NCBI GenBank assembly: GCA_963662275.1
Contig: OY759316.1
Coordinates: 1,408,001-1,472,000 of the forward strand
Length of the DNA stretch: 64,000 nt
Direction: 5' to 3'
DNA from: Candidatus Cloacimonadales bacterium
Lineage (GTDB): Bacteria; Cloacimonadota; Cloacimonadia; Cloacimonadales; DAONDQ01
The notes beneath the pieces are model-generated. The model saw only the letters and a program-made list of their open reading frames with translations, ran no database searches and was not told the origin of the DNA. This document shows positions 6,497 through 57,285 of this stretch, piece by piece (positions within the stretch are counted from its first letter, which is position 1; every line of letters starts with the position of its first letter). Position numbers and translations under genes: made by a program.

Positions 6497-9400
6497 AATT
6501 AACCGAATTATCAATCAAACGACCGGCGTTCATGACGATGATCTTCGTCGCGCTGGCTGTTTTCGGTATCTACTCATTCTCCAACATGGGAGAAGACCTG
6601 CTGCCCAAGATGGATTTCCCGATGGTATTCGTGGCGACACCATACCCTGGAGCAGGACCTGAGGAGATTGAGACCCAAGTCGGCAAGCCGATTGAAGAGG
6701 CATTATCCTCTATCAACGGCATTAAATCGATAAGAACCTATTGTGCAGAGAACTTCAATTTCTGTATGGTCGAATTCAATATGACAGAGAATGTTGATGT
6801 TGCCCTCAATAATGTGGAACGCCAGGTGAATGCTGTGCAAAATCAATTGCCTGATGGCGTGAAGCCTTCCACCGTGAGCAAGGCGGATGTCGGCTCTTTT
6901 GCCATATTACGTATTGCAACTCAGTCCAACATGCAATCTGAGGCGTTCTACCAATTCATGAAGGATCATGTAAAGCCTCAACTTGAACAGGTGGAAGGTG
7001 TCTCCGGTGTGGAGATTGTCGGTGGAAAGCAGCGAGAGATTCGCGTTGAAGTGGATAATGATAAACTACGTCACTACAACCTAACTTTAGGACAGATCAA
7101 CAACTCCTTGACCCTGGAGAATCTTGATTTTCCAACAGGCTCCATTGAACAAAGAGATCGCAAATTCATCGTGAGAGTAGCAGGTAAATTCAAGATACTG
7201 GAAGAGATCGGGAATCTGATCGTTTCTTCCGGTCCCAATGGTAATGTGTATCTGAAAGATGTGGCTACAATCCTGGATACGGATAAAGAAGAATTCACCT
7301 TTGGCAGACTGAACAATGTGAATAGCATCGGTTTGCTCATCACCAAAGCATCAGATGCGAATGCTGTGAAAACCAGTGATGGTGTGCAGAAAGCCATGAA
7401 GAAAATGGAAGTGCTTTATAAACAGCATAACCTGAAGTTCATCATTGCCCAGGATATCACTGATTTCACAAGAAGAGCTGTGAAGAGCGTCGGAATCGAT
7501 ATGCTGTTTGCCATTCTCATGGTAGCACTGGTACTATTTGTATTTCTTCACAATGCGAAGAATATGTTCATCGTTCTCCTCACCATTCCCATATCACTGG
7601 TGACAACCTTCATCATGATGAAATTAATGGGCTTCACGATCAACCTGATTACGATGATGGCAATGACGCTGGTCATTGGTATCCTGGTGGATGATTCCAT
7701 TGTGGTGTTGGAGAATATTCATCGTAAATTGCAGTTGGGAAGGGATAAAGTGACAGCAGCCATCGAAGGTCGTTCAGAAATCGGCTTGGCTGCCATCGCC
7801 ATTACCCTCGTGGATGTCGTAGTCTTCCTGCCTATTGCCATGCTTTCAGGTATGGTCGGTATGATCTTCCGTGAATTCGGATTGACGATCGTGACAGCAA
7901 CACTGGTATCCCTGTTCGTTTCTTTCACGTTGACGCCTCTGTTGGCTTCCCGCTGGTCAGAAGTGATCACTTGTTCCAAGAATGATTGGTGGTCACGCTT
8001 CACATGTGCTTTCGAAAATTTCGAAGAGAAGATGAAAAACGGATATAGAAGCTTACTGGAATCTTCTTTGAAACATAGGGGACGTGTGGTTTTGGTGGCT
8101 GTTTTTGCTCTTGTTTTGAGCTTTGTACTAGTCGGTATGGGATTCGTCGGTGGTGAGTTCATGCCTGCTATGGATCGTGGTGAATTTGCTGTGAACCTGG
8201 AATTGCCGAAAGGTACAGGTATCATGGATAATGATATGGTCACTAAAAGAGTTGAAAGGATCATTGCAGCTTCCAAAGAAGTGGATACTTACTATACTGT
8301 TGTAGGTAGGAAGGAACAACCTTGGGGTGGATCTAACAGCGCAGATATCAGCCAAATACAGGTGAAGTTGAAACCATTGAAGGATAGAAGACCGACCAAT
8401 GATGTGATCAGTAGTCTGCTTAAGGATATCGGAAAGATACCCGGTGTGAAAGCCAGTGCTGCCTTGATTGGACTGTTCGGTGCTGCAGAAGAATCTTCTT
8501 TAATGCTCGAGTTGAAGGGTGATAACCTGGAACCATTGATCAAAGCATCAGATATGGTTTTAAATGTTGTGAAACAGGTACCCGGTACACGTGATGTAAA
8601 AACAAGCTGGGAAAACGGTCAGCCTGAAGTAAAGGTGCATATTGATAGAGAGAAATGTGCATTCTATCAGACTTCAGTCGGGGAAGTAGGACAAACAGTC
8701 CGTAATGCCTTGCAAGGGGATATTCCTTCCAAGTTCAAAGACGGTCCAACAGAATATGATATCAATGTCATATTGAATAAAAAATACCGGCAGGATGCTG
8801 AGAACGTGAAAAATATCATGATCATGAATCACAAAAATCAACCCATACTGCTTTCCCAAGTTGCCGAAGTTGGTTATGGTATAGGACCCACGGTCATCAG
8901 CAGGAAGGATAGAACACGTGTCATCTCCATCTCCATGAGTGCCACTATTCCTTCAAATGCCATACGCCAGGGGATCGAAAAAGGACTGGCTAAGATAACA
9001 CTGCCCCCAGGCGTCAGTGTGTTCTATGGCGGTGATTTTGAAAGCCAGACAGATATGATGGGAGATATGATGGTTGCCATCGGCTTCGCCTTCCTGTTCG
9101 TTTACATGATCATGGTGAGTTTGTTTGAATCATTCACCTATCCATTCATTATCATGTTTTCCATTCCAGTCGCTCTTGTGGGAGCATTATTTGCCCTTGC
9201 ATTAACTCACCAGACCCTGAATGTTTTCTCAATGATAGGAATCATCATGTCGATGGGCTTGGTAACAAAGAACGCCATATTACTTGTAGATTATACGAAT
9301 ACTCTACGACGTAGGGGAAAGGATATGGTTTCTGCACTATTAGAAGCAGGTCCAATCAGATTGAGACCGATCATTATGACCACCCTAACGATGGTCTTCG

Positions 9401-27766: not shown

Positions 27767-28933
27767 TTACAATTTTTCCTGAAAAATTGTGATTAGCTTT
27801 TCCACCGCCATGCTTGCAGTAATATCCCCATTCAGAAGCTGCTTCTGAACATCCGGCAAGGATGTCTTTATCCCCGGATTCTGGTAAAAGCTAGCTTCTA
27901 AATATTCCTGGATCATCGATTTTACCCAATCTAATACTTGTGAATTTCGACGTTTTAAGAAGAAGCCATTTTTTTTCGTCACTTCCTTGAAATTCTCAAT
28001 CAGTGCCCAGATTTCAGGAATGCCTTCTTCCGTGAGAGCAGAGCAGGTATAGGCATCAGTTTTCCAGCCTATTGTGGCAGGAGTTAGGTAATGAAGGGCA
28101 TGAGCATATTCAGAACAAGCCCTTTTTGCGCTTTGTATATTATCACCATCCGCTTTATTCACGACGATAGCATCGGCAAGCTCAATCACACCTTTCTTGA
28201 TACCTTGCAGTTCATCTCCTGCACCGGGGATCTGTAAAAGGAGAAAGAAATCAACCATGGAACGCACGGTGATTTCACTCTGACCCACACCGACCGTCTC
28301 CACGAGGATTACATCATATCCTGCTGCTTCGCATAAAAGCATCGTTTCACGCGTTTTCTTCGTCACACCACCAAGGGTACCACCCGAAGGAGAAGGACGT
28401 ATAAAACAGTGCGGATCACGCGCTAAACGCTCCATACGGGTCTTATCACCAAGAATACTTCCATGCGTGATACTGCTGCTCGGATCAACGGCAAGAACTG
28501 CCACATTATGCCCTTGCGAAGTAAGATAAGAACCGAAAGTCTCTATAAATGTACTTTTACCAGCGCCGGGTACACCTGTAATGGCAATGCGAATAGAATT
28601 ACCTGCTTTGGGTAAGATGTTGCGAATCAGCTCCTGTGCCAGTACCTGGTGAGTATGGGAATTGCTTTCCACCAAGGTAATAGCCCTGGCAAGGATCATA
28701 GTATCCCTGTTCAAAATACCAGCGATATAATCATTTATCGTCAGTTTCTTTGGATGTTTTACTGGTCGTAGCGCTCGATCTCCGAGCGGGTTGGATTGTA
28801 GGTCTCGATCTCCGAGCGAGTTGGATTTAGAAGGTAACCCATCGTGGACAGATTCCACACCAGGCATGACAGTGGTTGTGAATTCACTACCTGCATTAGC
28901 AGGAGTCCATTCCGGCTTCTTACTCTTTGGCAT
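27767..28933 (-). CDS. meaB: Methylmalonyl-CoA mutase-associated GTPase MeaB
   Basis: GVPGAGKST, DPSS..GSILGDKTRM, ETVGVGQSE, NKAD. Confidence 0.95.
   Translation of the reverse strand: MPKSKKPEWTPANAGSEFTTTVMPGVESVHDGLPSKSNSLGDRDLQSNPLGDRALRPVKHPKKLTINDYIAGILNRDTMILARAITLVESNSHTHQVLAQELIRNILPKAGNSIRIAITGVPGAGKSTFIETFGSYLTSQGHNVAVLAVDPSSSITHGSILGDKTRMERLARDPHCFIRPSPSGGTLGGVTKKTRETMLLCEAAGYDVILVETVGVGQSEITVRSMVDFFLLLQIPGAGDELQGIKKGVIELADAIVVNKADGDNIQSAKRACSEYAHALHYLTPATIGWKTDAYTCSALTEEGIPEIWALIENFKEVTKKNGFFLKRRNSQVLDWVKSMIQEYLEASFYQNPGIKTSLPDVQKQLLNGDITASMAVEKLITIFQEKL
28768..28827 (+). repeat. Two 30-bp GTAG-footed REPs in frame within meaB
   Basis: gtagcgctcgatctccgagcgggttggatt and gtaggtctcgatctccgagcgagttggatt. 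Confidence 0.85.
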
Positions 28934-28953
28934 ATACCTTCCTTAGCTTTGAC

Positions 28954-29449
28954 TCCCCTCCCATTTGTAAAGGGAGGGGTCGGGGGAGAGCTAGTTCTTT
29001 ATATTTCCATCACATCATCAGGCTTTTCAATTAAACAATACAGATGTTCTAAAACCACATCCATATTTATCATTACATCAAAATTAGTAAATCTGATCAC
29101 CCTGATTCCGAGATTTTCAAAATACTCGGTTCTCTTGTGGTCATATTCCCTATTAGTTTCCTCAAAATGTTGACTTCCATCAAGTTCAATCACTATTTTC
29201 TTTTCCGGGCAACAGAAATCAGCAATATAATTTCCAATACCTTGTTGTCGATAGAATTTCAAATTCTGGAAGCGTTTATTCCGCAATCGCCCCCATAATT
29301 TCTTTTCTGCATCTGTCTTTTCTTTTCGTAGATGAATCCGGTTATCTTTTGTTGATTTTCGGTTTATTGTTTTCATTATGTCCTCCGAAAATATGCATCA
29401 GAGCAGAACTAGCTCTCCCCTAACCCCTCCCTTTACAAATGGGAGGGGA
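28954..29449 (-). mobile_element. DUF559 cassette bounded by 45-bp inverted repeats
   Basis: 28954-28998 vs 29405-29449 match 43/45 inverted; each contains hairpin CCCCTCCC-N9-GGGAGGGG plus a G-rich tail. Confidence 0.75.
28999..29376 (-). CDS. DUF559 (YcjD/Vsr-like) endonuclease-domain protein
   Basis: TDAEKKLWGRLR, KFYRQ, YIADF, IELDGSQH, GIRVIRFTN; GGAGG RBS. Confidence 0.92.
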   Translation of the reverse strand: MKTINRKSTKDNRIHLRKEKTDAEKKLWGRLRNKRFQNLKFYRQQGIGNYIADFCCPEKKIVIELDGSQHFEETNREYDHKRTEYFENLGIRVIRFTNFDVMINMDVVLEHLYCLIEKPDDVMEI

Positions 29450-29463
29450 ACCGGAAGAGAATC

Positions 29464-29522
29464 TCTGCAATTTTTAATTTTTAATTTCTGCCCCTGTTAC
29501 CTGTTACCTGTTACCTGTAACC
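29464..29522 (-). repeat. Heptamer arrays (TAACAGG)n and (AAAAATT)n overlapping the mutB stop
   Basis: cctgtta repeats encode QVTGNR and the TAA at 29497-29499; followed by gcaga-aattaaaaattaaaaatt-gcagag. Confidence 0.8.
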
Positions 29523-32025
29523 TTCTGCAAAGCTCGGTCATCATCACTTTAGCTGAATATGGCAGCACTGTTCCCGGTCCAAAGATGGCAGCAGCGCCGT
29601 GTTCTCTCAGGAATTCATAATCCTGGGCAGGAATCACTCCACCGACAACGACCATGATATCTTCTCTTCCCAACTTTTGAAGTTCTTCCATCAAAGCGGG
29701 GAGGAGGGTCTTATGTCCGGCTGCAAGGGAGCTCATACCTATAATATGCACATCATTCTCCACCGCTTGTTTGGCAGTTTCTTCCGGTGTCTGGAATAGC
29801 GGTCCGATATCCACATCGAATCCCATATCGGCGTAAGCAGTGGCAACGACCTTTGCCCCGCGGTCATGTCCGTCCTGACCCATCTTGGCGATGAGAATAC
29901 GCGGACGTCTTCCTTCCTCTTCAGCAAAAGCATCTGTCAAGGCACGGATTTCATCGAATTCAGACTTATTGGCATATTCGCTGCCATACACATTATTGAT
30001 GGTGCGAATTGTGGCTTTATGACGACCAAATATCTTTTCCATAGCGAACGATATCTCCCCTAATGTTGCCCTGGCTCGTGCTGCTTCAATGGAAAGCGCC
30101 AGGAGATTACCTTCACCTGTATCCGCAGCTTTGGTTATAGCTTCCAGACAGGCATCCACTTTAGATTGATCACGATTACTCTTTAATTCATGAAGCCGAC
30201 GTAATTGCGCTTCACGTACAGATGTATTATCAACTTCCAGGATTTCCATGGGTTGCTCTTTCTCTAAACGGTATTTATTCACACCGACGATCGTCTCGGC
30301 ACCGCTGTCTATATGTGCCTGGCGACGTGCAGCCGCTTCTTCAATTCTCATCTTGGGAAGTCCGGTTTCAATGGCTTTCGACATTCCGCCCAGTTCTTCC
30401 ACTTCCATAATATGATGCCAGCCACGTTTCATAATGGCATCGGTCAGGGCTTCCACATAATAAGAACCACCCCATGGATCCACGACTTTGCAGATACCCG
30501 TTTCATATTGAAGATACAACTGGGTGTTACGGGCAATACGAGCTGAGAAGTCTGTGGGAAGTGCGATGGCTTCATCCAGTGAATTGGTATGAAGTGACTG
30601 TGTATGTCCCAGCGTGGCAGCCAAAGCTTCCATGCAGGTACGGGTGATATTGTTGTAAGGATCCTGTTCTGTGAGGCTCCATCCTGAAGTTTGGGAATGA
30701 GTACGCAGAGCCATGGATTTCGGATCTTTCGGATTGAAATCTTTGATGAGCTTCGCCCAGATCACACGGGCAGCACGCAGCTTGGCGATTTCCATGAAGT
30801 AATTCATGCCTTCACCCCAGAAGAAGGAAAGACGAGGTGCGAAAGCATCGATGTCAATTCCTGCCTTGATTCCGGTACGAACGTATTCCAGTCCGTCAGC
30901 AAGCGTGTACGCCATTTCCAAATCAGCAGTTGCACCGGCTTCCTGCATATGATAACCGGAAATGCTGATGCTGTTGAACTTGGGCATATTCTTCGTCGTG
31001 AAACTGAATATATCCGCTATGATCTTCATGGAAGGTTCAGGCGGATAGATGTAGGTATTGCGCACCATGTATTCTTTTAAAATGTCATTTTGTATAGTTC
31101 CGATTAGTTTTTCCATGGAAACGCCCTGCTCTTCGGCAGCGACGATATAGAAGGCTAGTATTGGCAGCACTGCTCCGTTCATCGTCATGGAAACTGACAT
31201 CTGGTCTAAGGGAATGCCATCGAACAAGATCTTCATATCGAGGATGGAATCAATGGCTACACCCGCTTTACCCACGTCACCAATCACACGCGGATTGTCT
31301 GAATCATAGCCGCGATGTGTGGCAAGGTCGAAGGCAACGGACAAGCCTTTCTGTCCCATTGCAAGATTACGACGGTAGAAGGCATTCGATTCTTCTGCTG
31401 TGGAGAAGCCGGCATATTGTCGAATCGTCCAGGGCTTCTGGATGAACATGGAAGCATATGGTCCTCTCAGGAATGGCGGGATACCGGACATAAACTGCAA
31501 GTGCTGCAATACTTCCATATCCGCCTTCGTATAGAGCGGTTTCACATCTATCTGTTCATTCGTATGCCAGATAAGCTGATCGAATTTTTCCATCCTGTAC
31601 TTGAGCTGGGCAGCATCCTGCATACTCCAATGCATCAGTGTTTCATCAACTCCAGCATTAGCAAGATCTTCATCGAATTCAACTTCAAGTAGGGGAGACC
31701 CATGAGGCAATTCCTGCAATGCTGCTTTCTTCCATTCATTCAATGATTCATCTAATCCCCCCTTGGGGAGTGAATTGTCTAATCCCCCCTTGGGGAGTGA
31801 ATTGTCTAATCCCCCCTTGGGAAGTGAATTGTCTGCTCCCCCCTTGGGAAGTGAATTGTCTGCTCCCCCCTTGGGAAGTGAATTGTCTAATCCCCCCTTG
31901 GGAAGTGAATTGTCTAATCCCCCCTTGGGAAGGGGGGTAGGGGGGTCTATCCTCTCTGTCCTGTACGCTGTACGCTGTACGCTGTTCCCTTTTACCAACT
32001 CTATTTTCGTAAAGTCTGGTTTCAT
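29497..32025 (-). CDS. mutB: Methylmalonyl-CoA mutase large (catalytic, B12-binding) subunit with repeat-expanded N-terminus
   Basis: [23 protein letters not shown]12 motif [17 protein letters not shown]. Confidence 0.95.
31751..31990 (-). repeat. In-frame 27-bp tandem array (7x LPKGG) plus heptamer run in mutB
   Basis: Six units tctaatccccccttgggRagtgaattg (tgct variant in two), then the full hairpin copy ccccccttgggaaggggggtagggggg; (gctgtac)n at 31960-31990. Confidence 0.95.
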
Positions 32026-34160
32026 AACGCCACCCCCACTTTCTTCAAAACACGTGACAGAGTATCCACCACATCAGCACGAATATGAATGAATTCATCG
32101 ATACCCTGCGATTTGTAGGTTTCCACCATGTCTGTCGGATAACCAGCAAGAATGAGGCAGATATCCGATTTTGCTTTTCGAAGGAGCAGATCTATATGCG
32201 GAACAAGTTCCGGGTACATATCATCAGTAGCACAAATACAGACTGCTTCTGCACCTGATTCCAGGGCTGCTTTTACCGCATCTTCTACAGTCGCGAATCC
32301 CAACTCTTCAATGACTTTGAATCCGGCAGCAGAGAAGAATCCCTGGGCAAATTCAGCTCGAGCTTTATATTGGGCGATCGTTCCCATCGTTGCCAGGAAG
32401 ACAGCCGGACGCTTCCCTGCTGTATAAATATGACGTTCCACTGCAAGACGCATTGTTTCGTAAGGTTTGGAAAGCCTCGTAGGGGCGCATGGCAATACGC
32501 CCATCTGCTCTGCTTTATTTTCCATATTTTCGGGCGTATTGTCATGCGCCCCTACGCAATCATTCATGGGCGTACTTCCGCACGCCCCTACTAATATATC
32601 TTCATACGGATTGGCAAACATATTGGTACCCACAATCACATCCTTGCGGCTGCGAATATTTTTCTCACGCAGGGCAGCAATGGCTTTTATCTTATCATCT
32701 ATAAAATCATGTGCTTTACTCATTCCGCCTTTGCCTTCAATCTCCTGGAACAAAGCCCAGGCTTTTTCTGCGAGCTGGTTTGTCAGTGATTCAATGTACC
32801 AAGAACCACCGGCAGGATCTACAAGTGCATCGAGGTGAGTTTCTTCTTTTAAGATCAATTGCTGATTCCGGGCTATATGACGGGAGAATTCATCTCCTTC
32901 CCGAATCACAGAATCGAAGGCATCCACATGCAGGCTGTCTGTTCCGCCGAGAATGGCAGCAAACGCTTCAGTTGTAGAACGCAGGATATTTACATACGGA
33001 TCGAAAATTGTTTTATTATATTGTGAAGTTTTTGTATGCATCGTTATCTTCTGGGAATCGGTATGTCCGCCATAAGCTTTGACGATATTTGCCCACAAAT
33101 AGCGTGCAGCACGCAGCTTGGCAATTTCCATAAAGAAATTCGAGCCTATGCAAAACTCAAAGCGGATACGTGACGCAATATCATCTATCTTCATACCTCC
33201 ATCACCCAGGAGAGATATATGATGGTTACTCAATTCTTCAATCTTCTCTACGGCAATTGCAAAAGCTACCGCAAGTTCTTCCACAGCACTGGCACCACGA
33301 TTATGATAAACAGATGTATCCACGGAAATTGCATCCATCTTAGGGGCATGCTTCTTCATCCAATGCACGAACTGTAGCTTCGCTTGTAGCTCCGCCTTAA
33401 GACGGTTGTCTTTCTGCTCTGCCCTGTCATCTGACACCTGACACCCGACACCTGTGATGCTCCCTTCCACATCGTGAAGATTGATTCCATGCTTCTTGCA
33501 CCAATCCTGCAGCAACTCCGCAATCTTCAGCGGAACGCCATCGACCTTGAAATCGATCGCCACTGCTCTCAGGTCAATCCCCTCCAGCAATGCTTCCATA
33601 TCTTCTATCGTATTTAGTTGTAGCACTGCCTTCAGGCGGTTACCCTCTGCTCTGCTCTGCTCTGAAGCTCCCCCCTTGGGAAGTGAATTGTCTGCTCCCC
33701 CCTTGGGAAGGGGGGTAGGGGGGTCTATCTGCTCTGCCATTCTTAATTCTTCATTCTTAATTCTTAATTGCTCAGCAGCAGCAACTCTCACCGATACTCG
33801 ATCTAGCCCCCGCATCAATTCCTTTTTCAACACAGCATTCACTTGCTTTGGGTCGCTGCTGCTGGGAGCCTGCTGCGCTACGTCCCACGCTTTCACCACA
33901 TAACCTAAGGGATCCGTACCGCGAATGAATGAGTCAAAACCGGGCATGGAATCAGTATGTGGTAGATCGGCTGCATCTTCTTCCCGATAGATCGGCTGCA
34001 GATTGATGCCTTCATAAGTCGGAGTGATCATGGCTTTCTCAAATGGTACACCTTTCAATTGCGATTCAACAACTTTACGCCATTCTTCGTAGGAGGGAGG
34101 TGTAAAATCATCAGACAGCCGTAGCGGTTTTAAACCGGGCTGGTCAGTCGAATTTGACAT
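32022..34160 (-). CDS. mutA: Methylmalonyl-CoA mutase small (beta) subunit with several in-frame repeat inserts
   Basis: [27 protein letters not shown]; lacks DxHxxG; start placed at ATG 34160 after AGGAG. Confidence 0.92.
32479..32591. repeat. Three GTAGGGGCG..CGCCC REPs in frame within mutA
   Basis: 32479-32502 forward; 32532-32555 and 32568-32591 reverse. Confidence 0.9.
33386..33454. repeat. REP plus heptamer composite in frame within mutA
   Basis: gtagctccgccttaagacggtt, tctgctctgc, (ctgacac)n. Confidence 0.8.
33620..33770. repeat. Four-part composite repeat in frame within mutA
   Basis: REP gtagcactgccttcaggcggt; (ctctg)x4; LPKGG 27-mer plus hairpin; (aattctt)n. Confidence 0.9.
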
Positions 34161-34418
34161 ATCAATATCTCCTGGAGTTTTTTGGGTAAACTTGATATGC
34201 CTGTTGATTGATGTCAATAATAAAACGGAACGCCGATTTCTTATCGGCGTGCGAGGTGAATTCTTTTCGCTTCTCTTCTCCGAAACGATAAGATATAAAC
34301 TTATTCTAAATCGATGTAAGTCTAGAATCTTGAGTACTATTTGCGAAAATAATGCAAATATCTTGACAAAAATACGGAAACGCATATCTTTTATATGTAT
34401 GTATTCATGGAGGTCAAC

Positions 34419-42969: not shown

Positions 42970-43413
42970 TCATGAATTATGATCATTTATTACCGGATAT
43001 CCATGGGCAATTAAGAATTTGTTGAATTCTTCCTGATAATCGATCTTTTTGTGATGTTCTTCCTGGTTTTGAATGTACTCTTTCACTTGAGGGATATTGG
43101 ATTTGCTAACGCTGAAAATGCCATATCCAATTTGCCAATGAAATTCGCCTTCATATGTTTCATGCATCCATTTGCTTGAATTAGCCTTGATTGTTCTAAT
43201 AAAATCAGAAATACCCATGTCTTTTGGAAGAAGAGCCAGGATGTGGACATGATCTTCGGTGCCATTCATTTGAATGACCTTACCTTGAACGTTACGGATA
43301 ATTCCGGTTATATATTCAAAAAGACGAGTTCGGACTTCCTGATTGAGCCAAGGGTTGCGGTTTTTGGTTGTAAATATGATGTGTGCAGCTACATGAAAAT
43401 ATGAATGCGGCAT
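42970..43413 (-). CDS. tnpA: IS200/IS605-superfamily Y1 HUH transposase, probably REP-associated
   Basis: HIIFTTK, DHVH, IKANSS, WQIGY, YIQNQ; REP modules on both sides; no tnpB. Confidence 0.9.
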   Translation of the reverse strand: MPHSYFHVAAHIIFTTKNRNPWLNQEVRTRLFEYITGIIRNVQGKVIQMNGTEDHVHILALLPKDMGISDFIRTIKANSSKWMHETYEGEFHWQIGYGIFSVSKSNIPQVKEYIQNQEEHHKKIDYQEEFNKFLIAHGYPVINDHNS

Positions 43414-43491
43414 GGTTACCTCCGAGGTTTCCTTTTAATTGTTTCTATCATGAATTAATATGAATCCTATGTCAAATTGTTTTTTTTTGAT

Positions 43492-43935
43492 AGATGATAG
43501 CCATAGCGTTGTACATGTTTGCCAGATGATAGCCCATAGCGTAAGCTATGGGACGGCGAGTAGATTTTTTTAAACATTTGTGCCAGATAATAGCCCATAG
43601 CGTAAGCTATGGGGAAGGAATTCAATGATTTTGCACACGTTGTGTGCCAGATGATAGCCCATAGCGTAAGCTATGGGAAAGGGATTCAATGATTTTTAAC
43701 ACGTTGTGTGTTAGATGATAGCCCATAGCGTAAGCTATGGGGATACGTTGAATGGGAAATGTTGATAACGAGGTGTCACCCCGACGTGGTTTATATTGTT
43801 TTCGATTCAATTGATCCCCCCATCCACCCATAATTTACATTATGGGCTATCATCTTTCATCCGTGCGGATTTGGACGGTATTGTTCATTCATTGATCCAC
43901 CCATAATTTACATTATGGGCTATCATCTGGCATCC
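43492..43935. repeat. Right REP module of tnpA locus
   Basis: Four full and one partial forward REP, then two inverted variants cccataatttacattatgggctatcatct. Confidence 0.9.
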
Positions 43936-55605: not shown

Positions 55606-55734
55606 AATATCCTTTTAAAAGTCTGGTTCCAGAAATTCGTTTTTTAAGCATATCCGTCAAGTTAATATTGACATAAATCCATTTGATTCGGATTGCTAAC
55701 CGTTGAAGAAACATGATTATGATTAGGAGATTCC

Positions 55735-57285
55735 ATGCATTATGCCTTATTGAAACATTGGGTCGAAGAGAATGCTCCCAAGTTGATAGGAAAGATCATT
55801 ACCGGTATGGAGCAATTTGAAGATCAGATGAGAATAACAATTCTCGGGACGCAGGAATCACTTCAATTGAACCTGATGAATAAAGATACATTTGCTTTCT
55901 TCTCAAATAAGCATGACTTGCCATTTCTTCCTACAAAAGACTCAGGTGCCTTTCAAAAACACATCAATGGAAGCACAATTCAATCGGTTGAAATGGATCA
56001 ATCTGACCGCATTATGTACTTTACACTTCACCGCACAGATATGTACCAGGACACGAATCAGTATCGTCTTATCTTTGAAATGATTCCAACTTACCAGAAT
56101 ATCATACTTACACGGCTTGATCATGGGAAGGAAATCGTGTTCGAAGCAATGCGTAAATTCAGCCTGGCTGATAATCCGCATAGGCAGATACTACCCGGCA
56201 GCCCATATATGTTACCACCGAATTTTGGGATACATAATGCGAAGAAGGATATAGGGTTGCCCCCCTCTTTAAAAGGGGTTATTAATCCCGTAGAAAATAA
56301 TGGGCATACAATCTCCCCTCTATTAAGCATTAGAGAGGGATCCGGGGTGAGTAGTGGGGTCAATCTCCAATTCGAATCTCTTTATTATGACACATATCTT
56401 CCCACAAAGAAAACTGATATCCAGCGCAGTATGATCAAGCAGATAAATACAGAAGTCATCAAACTGGAACGAAAATTAGCCAAGCAGGAAGTTGAACTGA
56501 TTTCTGCCAAAGATGAAACGCTCTGGTTTAATTATGCCGAACTGTTGAAAGCAAATTTCTCTCAGATCAAGCCGGGAATGAATTCTCTAGTTGTGACAGA
56601 TTATTTTACAGACGGTTTCCCCGAGATTGAGATACCGTTGCAGGGTGATAAATCTCCACGTATCAATATGGAATATTATGTCAGGAAATACAGGAAAGCA
56701 CGGAATGGCAGAGAAATTATCGAGAAAAATATCAGGGATGGGAAACAGAAGTTAGCTTTATTGTTGGAACGTATTGTGAAGATAAAAGATACGGATTCTT
56801 ATCTGGAGCTACGTTCAGAAATGGGAAAGAAAGGTGAAAGAACATCTCACCAGGTCAAGACTCTATTTCGTCACCTCCTGATCAATGAAAACTGGGAAAT
56901 TCTGATTGGCAGATCAGCAAAGGAAAATGACCTGCTTTCACTTCATACAGCAAAACCTCAGGATTGGTGGTTTCATACCCGTATTTACCAGGGAACACAC
57001 GTCGTCCTGAGAAACTTTAAAAAGCAGGAATTACCTGAAGAACTGAAACTACTCTGTGCCCGACTCGCAGCATATTACAGCAAGGCTAAATCTTCTTCCC
57101 AGGTACCGGTAGATTTTACCCAAATTCGTTATATCCGTAAACCACGTGGCAGTGCACCAGGCTATGTGACCTATTCTCACCAGCATACGGTCTTTGTTGA
57201 TCCCATTAGTTATCGGGAAGCAGCTTTGAAATTGAATAAAGTAGAAAGTACAGGTCATGAACATCCTTCCTTAATGCCCCTCTGA
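55735..57285 (+). CDS. NFACT/Rqc2 (FbpA-like) protein
   Basis: DRI motif, IGRSAKEND, WWFH, GTHV, AAYYSKA, VDFT..RYIRKP. Confidence 0.9.
   Translation: MHYALLKHWVEENAPKLIGKIITGMEQFEDQMRITILGTQESLQLNLMNKDTFAFFSNKHDLPFLPTKDSGAFQKHINGSTIQSVEMDQSDRIMYFTLHRTDMYQDTNQYRLIFEMIPTYQNIILTRLDHGKEIVFEAMRKFSLADNPHRQILPGSPYMLPPNFGIHNAKKDIGLPPSLKGVINPVENNGHTISPLLSIREGSGVSSGVNLQFESLYYDTYLPTKKTDIQRSMIKQINTEVIKLERKLAKQEVELISAKDETLWFNYAELLKANFSQIKPGMNSLVVTDYFTDGFPEIEIPLQGDKSPRINMEYYVRKYRKARNGREIIEKNIRDGKQKLALLLERIVKIKDTDSYLELRSEMGKKGERTSHQVKTLFRHLLINENWEILIGRSAKENDLLSLHTAKPQDWWFHTRIYQGTHVVLRNFKKQELPEELKLLCARLAAYYSKAKSSSQVPVDFTQIRYIRKPRGSAPGYVTYSHQHTVFVDPISYREAALKLNKVESTGHEHPSLMPL

Follow-up and report, generated by a model that had tools for sequence, protein, structure and literature searches.

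A small DUF559 nuclease gene bracketed by inward-facing TM repeats in a Cloacimonadales genome, and the recurrence of this pairing in other phyla

The window analysed here is a stretch of 64,000 nucleotides from the genome of a Candidatus Cloacimonadales bacterium (assembly GCA_963662275.1, contig OY759316.1, positions 1,408,001 to 1,472,000). Positions 28954-29449 of this window form a cassette of 496 bp that consists of one gene of the DUF559 family, coding for 125 aa, between two inverted repeats. The arms of the cassette (28954-28998 and 29405-29449) are 45 nt long each, pair at 43 of 45 positions (96%) and are separated by 406 nt; a 45-nt inverted repeat with two mismatches inside 1 kb is not expected to originate by chance. 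The single open reading frame (ORF) between the arms is the DUF559 gene, on the reverse strand (28999-29376). The left arm directly adjoins its TAA stop codon (28999-29001), and its ATG, at 29376, is 28 nt away from the right arm. These 28 nt make up a leader (29377-29404, reverse strand) that contains GGAGGA, the likely ribosome-binding site, and a TTCTGCTCTG extension that also trails most of the gene-free copies of the repeat. The inverted-repeat search and the folding of the arms show the same organization on both sides: an 8-bp hairpin, CCCCTCCC-N9-GGGAGGGG (-9.2 to -9.6 kcal/mol and z -2 to -3 for the hairpin part), is followed by a spacer of 3 nt, by the tail GGGGAGAG and then by CTAGTTCT. 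The spacer is TCG in the downstream terminal repeat (28954-28998, forward strand) and TTA in the upstream one (29405-29449, reverse strand), and the tails of both face inward, toward the gene. Seven of the 8 tail positions agree with a mirror image of the G-arm (CCCCTCCC-N9-GGGAGGGG-N3-GGGGAGAG), and there is no T-run at the hairpins.

The cassette sits between mutB and meaB, in a row of genes that are all carried by the reverse strand. Downstream of it, meaB (27767-28933; Pfam MeaB, E = 5.2e-108) has its start codon 20 nt from the repeat; upstream of it, mutB (maximal ORF 29497-32025; Pfam MM_CoA_mutase, E = 6.5e-234) has its stop codon 47 nt from the other repeat and is preceded by mutA (32022-34385, identified by Pfam). 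The DUF559 gene shares their strand and therefore stands in sense orientation in the mutA-mutB-meaB row; from this sense insertion into a short spacer, it is probably expressed by read-through. No RNA run is listed among the sequencing runs with this sequence. The initial annotation of this locus, made from the sequence alone, had described a DUF559 gene tightly enclosed by tailed hairpin repeats at this junction, one of them abutting the stop codon, and the architecture proves to be correct, the hairpins being borne out by folding. Pfam detects no transposase domain in the cassette, which does not qualify as an insertion sequence (IS) or as a miniature inverted-repeat transposable element. 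An Rfam scan of 28700-29700 (E up to 1) returned nothing but one match to a viral element, well under the gathering score and attributed to chance.

DUF559 is a very common domain of unknown function. The protein encoded by the cassette matches PF04480 with 121.5 bits (cut-off 20.6 bits; E = 1.9e-35) over residues 9-115, and NCBIfam NF007294, which describes the YcjD-type DUF559 proteins, at E = 2.5e-24, a match that stays below the equivalog cut-off of this model. Among the sequences of the PDB it matches 3hrl, a structural-genomics protein (E = 5.3e-22), and a profile built from 38 homologs also reaches 3r3p, a 'mobile intron protein' (E = 8e-6); the enterotoxin B chains that appeared in the same profile search (E ~0.01) were taken as chance matches. 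The AF2 model of the protein (pLDDT 88.4) was compared to known structures with Foldseek, which retrieved 3hrl with a TM-score of 0.91 and both 3r3p and 1vsr with a probability of 1.0. The cassette gene (28999-29376) thus codes for a PD-(D/E)xK-type protein with the fold of Vsr and I-Bth0305I, putatively a nuclease. Fourteen residues are invariant in the 38 homologs (R17, T21, E24, W28, R43, Q44, D53, E64, D66, G67, H70, D79, R82 and R95), among which D53, E64, D66, G67, H70, D79, R82 and R95 are, from their position, putative active-site residues. PADLOC yielded no defence system, just weak and partial matches to nuclease domains that belong to far larger proteins (DpdF, E = 2.9e-5 over 57 of 1078 profile positions). 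A passage of Steczkiewicz et al. 2012 (PMC3424549) groups VSR, DUF559 and DUF2726 with the 3hrl, 3r3p and Vsr structures.

The repeats of the cassette belong to a large family dispersed over this genome of 4,378,784 bp. The cassette arm has 17 further copies (35-45 nt, 86-100% identity), and repeat copies are 95-100% alike within the genome. The copy at genome position 1297777 is identical (100%) to the left arm over 43 nt; the ~12 nt that follow it resemble the 3' end of the gene, a similarity too short to be called a relic. The two strands contain 27 and 22 occurrences of the tail GGAGAGYTAG, against 5.3 and 5.4 expected from the base composition and 7 and 3 in the reversed control. The general repeat unit comprises, in this order, a C-arm, a loop, the complementary G-arm and, beyond a short spacer, another G-tract in mirror arrangement to the G-arm. 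Judged by this three-block grammar, the cassette repeats are putative members of the BoxC/PIT/TM class of bacterial repeats, TM standing for the G/C-rich intrastrand triplex motif (hereafter TMs), a membership that the initial annotation had missed.

A strict three-block scan of the genome identified 221 TMs. The commonest type is F2 (CCCCCCTTGRGAAGGGGGG-TA-GGGGGG, 101 copies), followed by F1b (CCCTCCCTTTGGATAAAGGGAGGG…, 36 copies), F1a, the type found in the cassette arms (16 copies), F4 (16 copies) and F3 (9 copies); 43 copies correspond to other types. Neighbouring TMs at most 1500 bp apart form 13 inward, 40 outward and 28 tandem pairs. Seven of the 13 inward pairs hold a DUF559 gene, all of them with a gap of 420-450 bp. 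The remaining inward pairs enclose no recurrent gene family, and a search for DUF559 remnants in four gene-free tails-inward pairs found none. Many TMs have short tandem repeats of 5-7 nt as immediate neighbours, such as (CCTGTTA)3, (GGTAACA)n, (CACCTAG)n and (YTCTG)n; examples are found at window positions 29493-29520 and at genome positions 1297710-1297750, 2186790-2186815 and 3623470-3623510.

PF04480 is present at 11 places of this genome, corresponding to ten small genes and to one domain within a frame of 1586 aa. All ten small genes are bracketed by tails-inward repeats: for eight of them the strict scan detects a TM at no more than 300 nt, against an expected 0.01 per 200-nt window, and the other two have degenerate flanking repeats that were recognised by eye. 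Three of the genes are diverged paralogs, one of them with an in-frame TAA, that are flanked by three different hairpins. The seven others are near-identical copies in a local tandem array at 3.581-3.588 Mb, in which every copy is bracketed tails-inward by the F2 repeat, the commonest type of the genome; two of these copies have stops and another one is split by an IS21-like insertion. This IS21-like element (genome 3583700-3586330) carries two ORFs that, by eye, resemble istA and istB.

The pairing of DUF559 genes and TMs is not limited to this genome. A scan of one genome per species recovered 358 relatives of the protein, and the best 80 loci (42-56% identity) were analysed. They come from Proteobacteria, Bacteroidota, Patescibacteria, Nitrospirota, Chloroflexota, Planctomycetota, Elusimicrobia, Clostridia, an archaeal bin and others. 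Strict TMs were scored in windows of 260 nt around the matched region, six loci having a shorter flank. They were found upstream in 46 of the 80 loci, the nearest pointing at the gene in 36 of them, and downstream also in 46, pointing at the gene in 39. At least one side carries a strict TM in 56 loci and both sides do so in 36, 28 of which have the tails-inward arrangement. The rest of these loci provides the background, 16 TMs in 311,681 nt or 0.015 per window, and the reversed-sequence control contained 5 matches. The repeat grammar that the initial annotation suggested to look for at the flanks of DUF559 homologs is thus recovered at 10/10 genes in this genome and at 56/80 loci across phyla, the background being 0.015 per window. 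In E. coli K-12, a motif of the E. coli type (TMECO) lies ~170 nt downstream of the DUF559 gene ycjD.

Closer to the window, PF04480 is present in 36 of the 61 sampled genomes of its order. After setting aside contig-end hits, weak hits and three hits in one genome (G043), 36 small DUF559 genes from 19 order relatives were available; a strict TM lies upstream of 15 of them and downstream of 10, and 9 have one at both flanks. A further seven genes of this set are flanked by long inverted repeats with the same grammar and with hairpin-bearing loops. In G043, the full cassette is found at each of the three small DUF559 genes. Apart from these small genes, five order relatives (G013, G051, G014, G054 and G046) have a DUF559 domain in frame inside a long ORF, flanked by peptide repeats (SPKGDFEKGD, KSPLGDLG) that derive from short C/G-arm hairpin repeats. 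A strict TM stands beside one of these five in-frame modules, that of G013. By eye, four of the five long ORFs resemble type I HsdM methyltransferases and share the position of the insert.

The comparison of orthologous sites provides a complementary view of the cassette. The genes mutB and meaB are adjacent in relatives, and their spacer measures ~100, 60 and 0 nt in the order relatives G021, G020 and G003, respectively, without the cassette or repeats of its type. In the congener G001, a spacer of ~460 nt contains an F2 motif as well as a repeat pair with inward tails that, instead of a gene, encloses a filler of 54 nt; the mutB-side arm of this pair (CTAGCTCTC…CCCTCCCTTTGCAAATGGGAGGG) is homologous to the arm of the window. 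The empty junctions that the initial annotation proposed to look for do therefore exist, in the form of bare spacers of 0-100 nt in three order relatives and of a gene-less repeat pair in the congener, and the gene, absent from this junction in the three order relatives, is not stably syntenic with mutB and meaB. The reverse case was also found: G001 has a DUF559 cassette at a site whose ortholog in the present genome (3622.8-3623.5 kb) only has four tandem repeat doublets. Presence and absence thus occur at repeat-bearing orthologous sites in both directions between the congeners, with no intron or intein context. The repeat copies of the two congeners are up to 98% identical, against 79-82% for the flanking genes. 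Together, this polymorphism and this likeness of the repeats indicate that the gene comes and goes at sites that keep their repeats and that the repeats stay homogeneous, gains and losses not being distinguished. The bare mutB-meaB spacer of G020 (~6995-7070 of its locus) contains a palindrome, GAGAGAGTTAGCC-TAGG-CTGACTCTCTC, that looks as if the two inward tails of the cassette had been joined with the gene left out, a resemblance that may be a coincidence.

Gene-free TMs are mostly intergenic, and 17 of the 221 fall within long open frames. The initial annotation had listed three gene-free copies, in mutB, mutA and an NFACT gene. All three sites exist and the last two copies do lie inside ORFs, but the location of the first in mutB is less certain. 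The copies at 31919-31945 and 33697-33723 are both of the commonest type of the genome (CCCCCCTTGGGAAGGGGGGTAGGGGGG). The former is found, together with ~7 tandem half-repeats of 27 nt (31741-31950, forward strand), in an N-terminal extension of the mutB ORF, and these half-repeats stay open in frame, reading as repeats of LPKGG(L/A)DNS. As the homology with the MutB of relatives begins at residue ~146-153 and the copy is upstream of that point, it may in fact belong to the mutA-mutB spacer. The copy in mutA (33697-33723, forward strand) is accompanied by one half-repeat and CAGAG-type flanks, and comparison with relatives shows that it is a true in-frame insertion, within 33640-33730, that the MutA of the order-level relatives G003, G020 and G021 do not have. 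The MutA of the congener G001 aligns only to the start of the insert; it has a related short piece and lacks ~85 adjoining residues. The third copy (56313-56351, forward strand) is of a third type (CCCCTCTATTAAGCATTAGAGAGGG-ATCC-GGGGTGAG) and lies inside an NFACT-family ORF (55723-57282, by sequence and Pfam). Elsewhere in the genome, eight paralogous ORFs of ~551-579 aa (genome 515009-516661, 1851592-1855276, 2539894-2541549, 2641155-2642807, 2891709-2895292 and 3886834-3888570) each have an in-frame TM ~60 codons before their C-terminus; Pfam scans of two of them detected FG-GAP repeats together with a T9SS C-terminal sorting domain. Back in the window, the 5' part of meaB contains a tandem duplication of 30 nt (28768-28827, 90% identical) that results in an in-frame repeat of 10 residues.

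Several scenarios may explain this association. The one that we favour, at about even odds (a probability of roughly 0.5), is that the cassette is a selfish unit of nuclease and repeat, in which TMs are the substrate of the nuclease and either the gene or the repeats are copied through host repair. The cassette would have entered the short mutB-meaB spacer in sense orientation. Its nuclease would recognise the folded part or the tail of its own repeat and nick or cut there; recombination and repair by the host among the ~220 copies could then copy the gene into repeat-bearing sites, in a homing-like manner, and the same repair would keep the repeats homogeneous and seed the gene-free copies. 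The repeats might in this way be spread by the nuclease itself. As the joining of DNA is beyond a PD-(D/E)xK nuclease, each of these events would have to be completed by the host. In favour of this scenario are the oriented pairing of gene and repeats within and across genomes, the insertion polymorphism among relatives, the likeness of the repeat copies, the kinship of the protein with a homing endonuclease and with Vsr, and the rearranged TM loci of E. coli. The initial annotation had imagined a REPtron-like system in which a restriction-fold nuclease spreads its own palindromes, and this idea is partly supported: gene and repeat are associated, and repeat abundance follows DUF559 only loosely.

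Indeed, a number of observations weigh against the selfish unit. At the locus itself, there is no target-site duplication, as the outer flanks of the cassette (…GCTTTGAC and ACCGGAAG…) have no direct repeat in common. In four sequencing runs, no contig skips the cassette or joins across it: the contigs of these runs end at both repeats, the depth of the interior equals that of the flanks in two runs, and one run covers part of the gene interior only, with the flanks uncovered. At the scale of the genome, the three diverged paralogs are only 62-64% identical to each other, and thus no recent transposition of the gene has occurred within it. F1b (36 copies), F3 and F4 are abundant, and no DUF559 gene is flanked by the same hairpin. 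The cassette of the third paralog is syntenic in both congeners and hence stable, and G001 has F1a-type repeats without a gene of the type of paralog 1. Among the best 80 homologous loci, 24 have no strict TM within 260 nt. In the relatives, where the repeat load was measured with a fixed pattern (CCCYCCN{3,12}GGRGGGN{2,5}GGGG), abundance follows DUF559 only loosely: the genome G040 (91% complete) has 105 matches and no DUF559, even by profile at E up to 1, and many DUF559-bearing relatives have no match. Nevertheless, this pattern is too narrow for repeats with other arms, and the comparison across genomes is therefore weak evidence in both directions.

Some of these difficulties would disappear if DUF559 were a free-standing homing-type endonuclease gene, copied by repair into TM pairs that already existed, and if the TMs spread otherwise, for instance through replication or recombination errors at non-B DNA or by another enzyme. 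The fold and the profile of the protein are related to I-Bth0305I, the gene is present or absent at repeat-bearing sites of both congeners in both directions, and neither the TM-rich G040 without DUF559 nor the repeat types without a cognate gene would be surprising. Yet, the flanking hairpin type differs for each DUF559 family, and the two families that have intact genes match abundant dispersed types, F2 (101 copies) and F1a (16 copies). Moreover, the gene-less inward pairs are few (6 of 13) and without gene remnants. Gene-free TMs mostly stand alone or have their tails facing outward (40 pairs of the latter kind), an arrangement that does not readily suggest a homing site. We consider that homing alone is a rather unlikely explanation.

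Another possibility is that the TMs are autonomous and that DUF559 is either captured cargo or a structure-specific repair nuclease that processes triplex or hairpin lesions. Vsr, which has the same fold, is a repair nickase, and TMs are linked to instability in E. coli, where a passage of Holder et al. 2015 (PMC4666352) reports that their loci are unusually rearranged among strains. The stable synteny of one cassette between the congeners and the age of the paralogs could be understood in the same way. A repair gene, however, does not need to be bracketed by inward tails at a spacing of 20-60 nt in more than 15 phyla. The patchy distribution of the homologs, both across phyla (at 42-56% identity) and within the order (36/61 genomes), rather fits a mobile gene, and DUF559 modules with hairpin-repeat flanks in frame inside putative methyltransferase genes are not what a guardian or a passenger of the TMs would lead one to expect. 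Such a role is improbable.

The flanking repeats could also be expression signals (an operator, an insulator, a terminator or a stabiliser of the mRNA), the dispersed copies having unrelated roles. The upstream repeat indeed immediately precedes the ribosome-binding site, the stop codon adjoins the downstream repeat and the hairpins are stable; but these hairpins lack a T-run, the same repeats occur in frame within coding regions, and neither promoter nor terminator activity was found for such elements in earlier work cited in a passage of Holder et al. 2015 (PMC4666352). This explanation also leaves aside the ~220 dispersed copies and the insertion polymorphism; it is very improbable.

Finally, that the repeats are ordinary REPs spread by a RAYT (Y1) of this genome, with DUF559 merely among them, is hardly credible: the genome does have 15 Y1_Tnp matches and several REP families, but none of these 15 genes has a TM within 1 kb, the four that are RAYT-like are flanked by other REP palindromes, and the TM-DUF559 pairing recurs in other phyla. 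One of the RAYT-like genes is located in the window (43063-43401, in a frame of 154 aa; PF01797, E = 2.1e-28), and four tandem copies of its own palindrome (CCCATAGCTTACGCTATGGG…), unlike the TMs, lie upstream of it (~43440-43830).

If the selfish unit of nuclease and repeat is taken as the starting point, a broader hypothesis can be put forward more tentatively. DUF559 proteins could be the missing partner enzymes of BoxC/PIT/TM repeats throughout bacteria. They would read a non-B structure, a hairpin with a third strand, at their own ends and break such sites genome-wide, and through host repair the cassette, or the repeats alone, would be copied to new places, including in-frame positions within housekeeping and restriction-modification genes. 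Such a pan-bacterial mobile system would be driven by a nuclease, with no transposase. Whatever the fate of this hypothesis, the consistent, oriented and cross-phylum pairing makes both the origin of the TMs and the function of DUF559 directly testable, and a binding or cleavage assay would need just one small protein and one DNA of 45 nt. If the nuclease does drive the repeats, this would be a second partnership of the REP-RAYT kind, independent of the first and based on a different chemistry, and it would provide a naturally occurring enzyme that has a folded DNA motif as its target.

The literature on the repeats and that on the protein family appear to have remained separate. According to the relevant passages of Holder et al. 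2015 (PMC4666352), BoxC/PIT/TM elements have been known since the 1990s with no origin or enzyme assigned, they are found in E. coli and in more than 260 other bacterial genomes, triplex folding in vitro was shown for the E. coli TMs, and transposase or integrase remnants were never found near them; the words DUF559, endonuclease and ycjD are absent from that paper. In the full-text literature outside subscription journals, searches turned up no paper that connects DUF559 or YcjD with these repeats. The E. coli YcjD and the Neisseria NGO0050 (3hrl) are stand-alone DUF559 proteins of the same family and size as the cassette protein, and the searchable full-text papers give no function or repeat association for either of them.

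The closest known counterpart of the repeats is the E. coli TM, whose consensus is CCCTCNCCC N3-6 GGGNGAGGG N3 GGGNGAGGG, with TTA as one of two second loops, in the part of Holder et al. 2015 (PMC4666352) that defines it. Both have a pyrimidine arm, a short loop, a complementary purine arm, a spacer of 3 nt (TTA being that of TMECO type A) and a mirror purine block, and both occur as many near-identical, dispersed and mostly intergenic copies tied to variable loci. In contrast, the arms are CCCCTCCC or CCCCCC in the cassette genome and CCCTCNCCC in TMECO, the first loop has 9 or 7 nt instead of 3-6, and there is an additional conserved extension (CTAGTTCTGCTCTG). The literal TMECO consensus is not found in the cassette repeats, which, given the differences in arm sequence and first-loop length, represent a sequence variant of the class and not TMECO itself. 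In the present genome, moreover, the repeats bracket a nuclease gene and some copies are in frame in genes, whereas that paper reports no enzyme.

At the level of the whole system, REPs and REPINs with their RAYT (the REPtron) offer the most natural comparison. In both cases, inverted copies of a palindromic repeat enclose a single-copy enzyme gene, the same genome contains dispersed further copies of this repeat without a gene, and several enzyme/repeat types coexist per genome. The enzyme of the cassette, however, is a PD-(D/E)xK protein with the Vsr fold and not an HUH Y1 transposase, and consequently does not have the covalent cut-and-rejoin chemistry; the cassette repeat has a third, mirror strand, and the RAYTs of this genome have other REPs of their own. 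With the catalytic domain of I-Bth0305I (3r3p), the nuclease of a mobile element, and with Vsr (1vsr, 1cw0), the protein shares its fold and a detectable profile similarity. It differs from them in being a bare domain of 125 aa, with no added DNA-binding domain and no intron or intein, that is flanked by structured repeats. The cassette would work like a REP-RAYT or homing-endonuclease partnership, without the Y1 enzyme that defines the former and without the intron or intein context of the latter.

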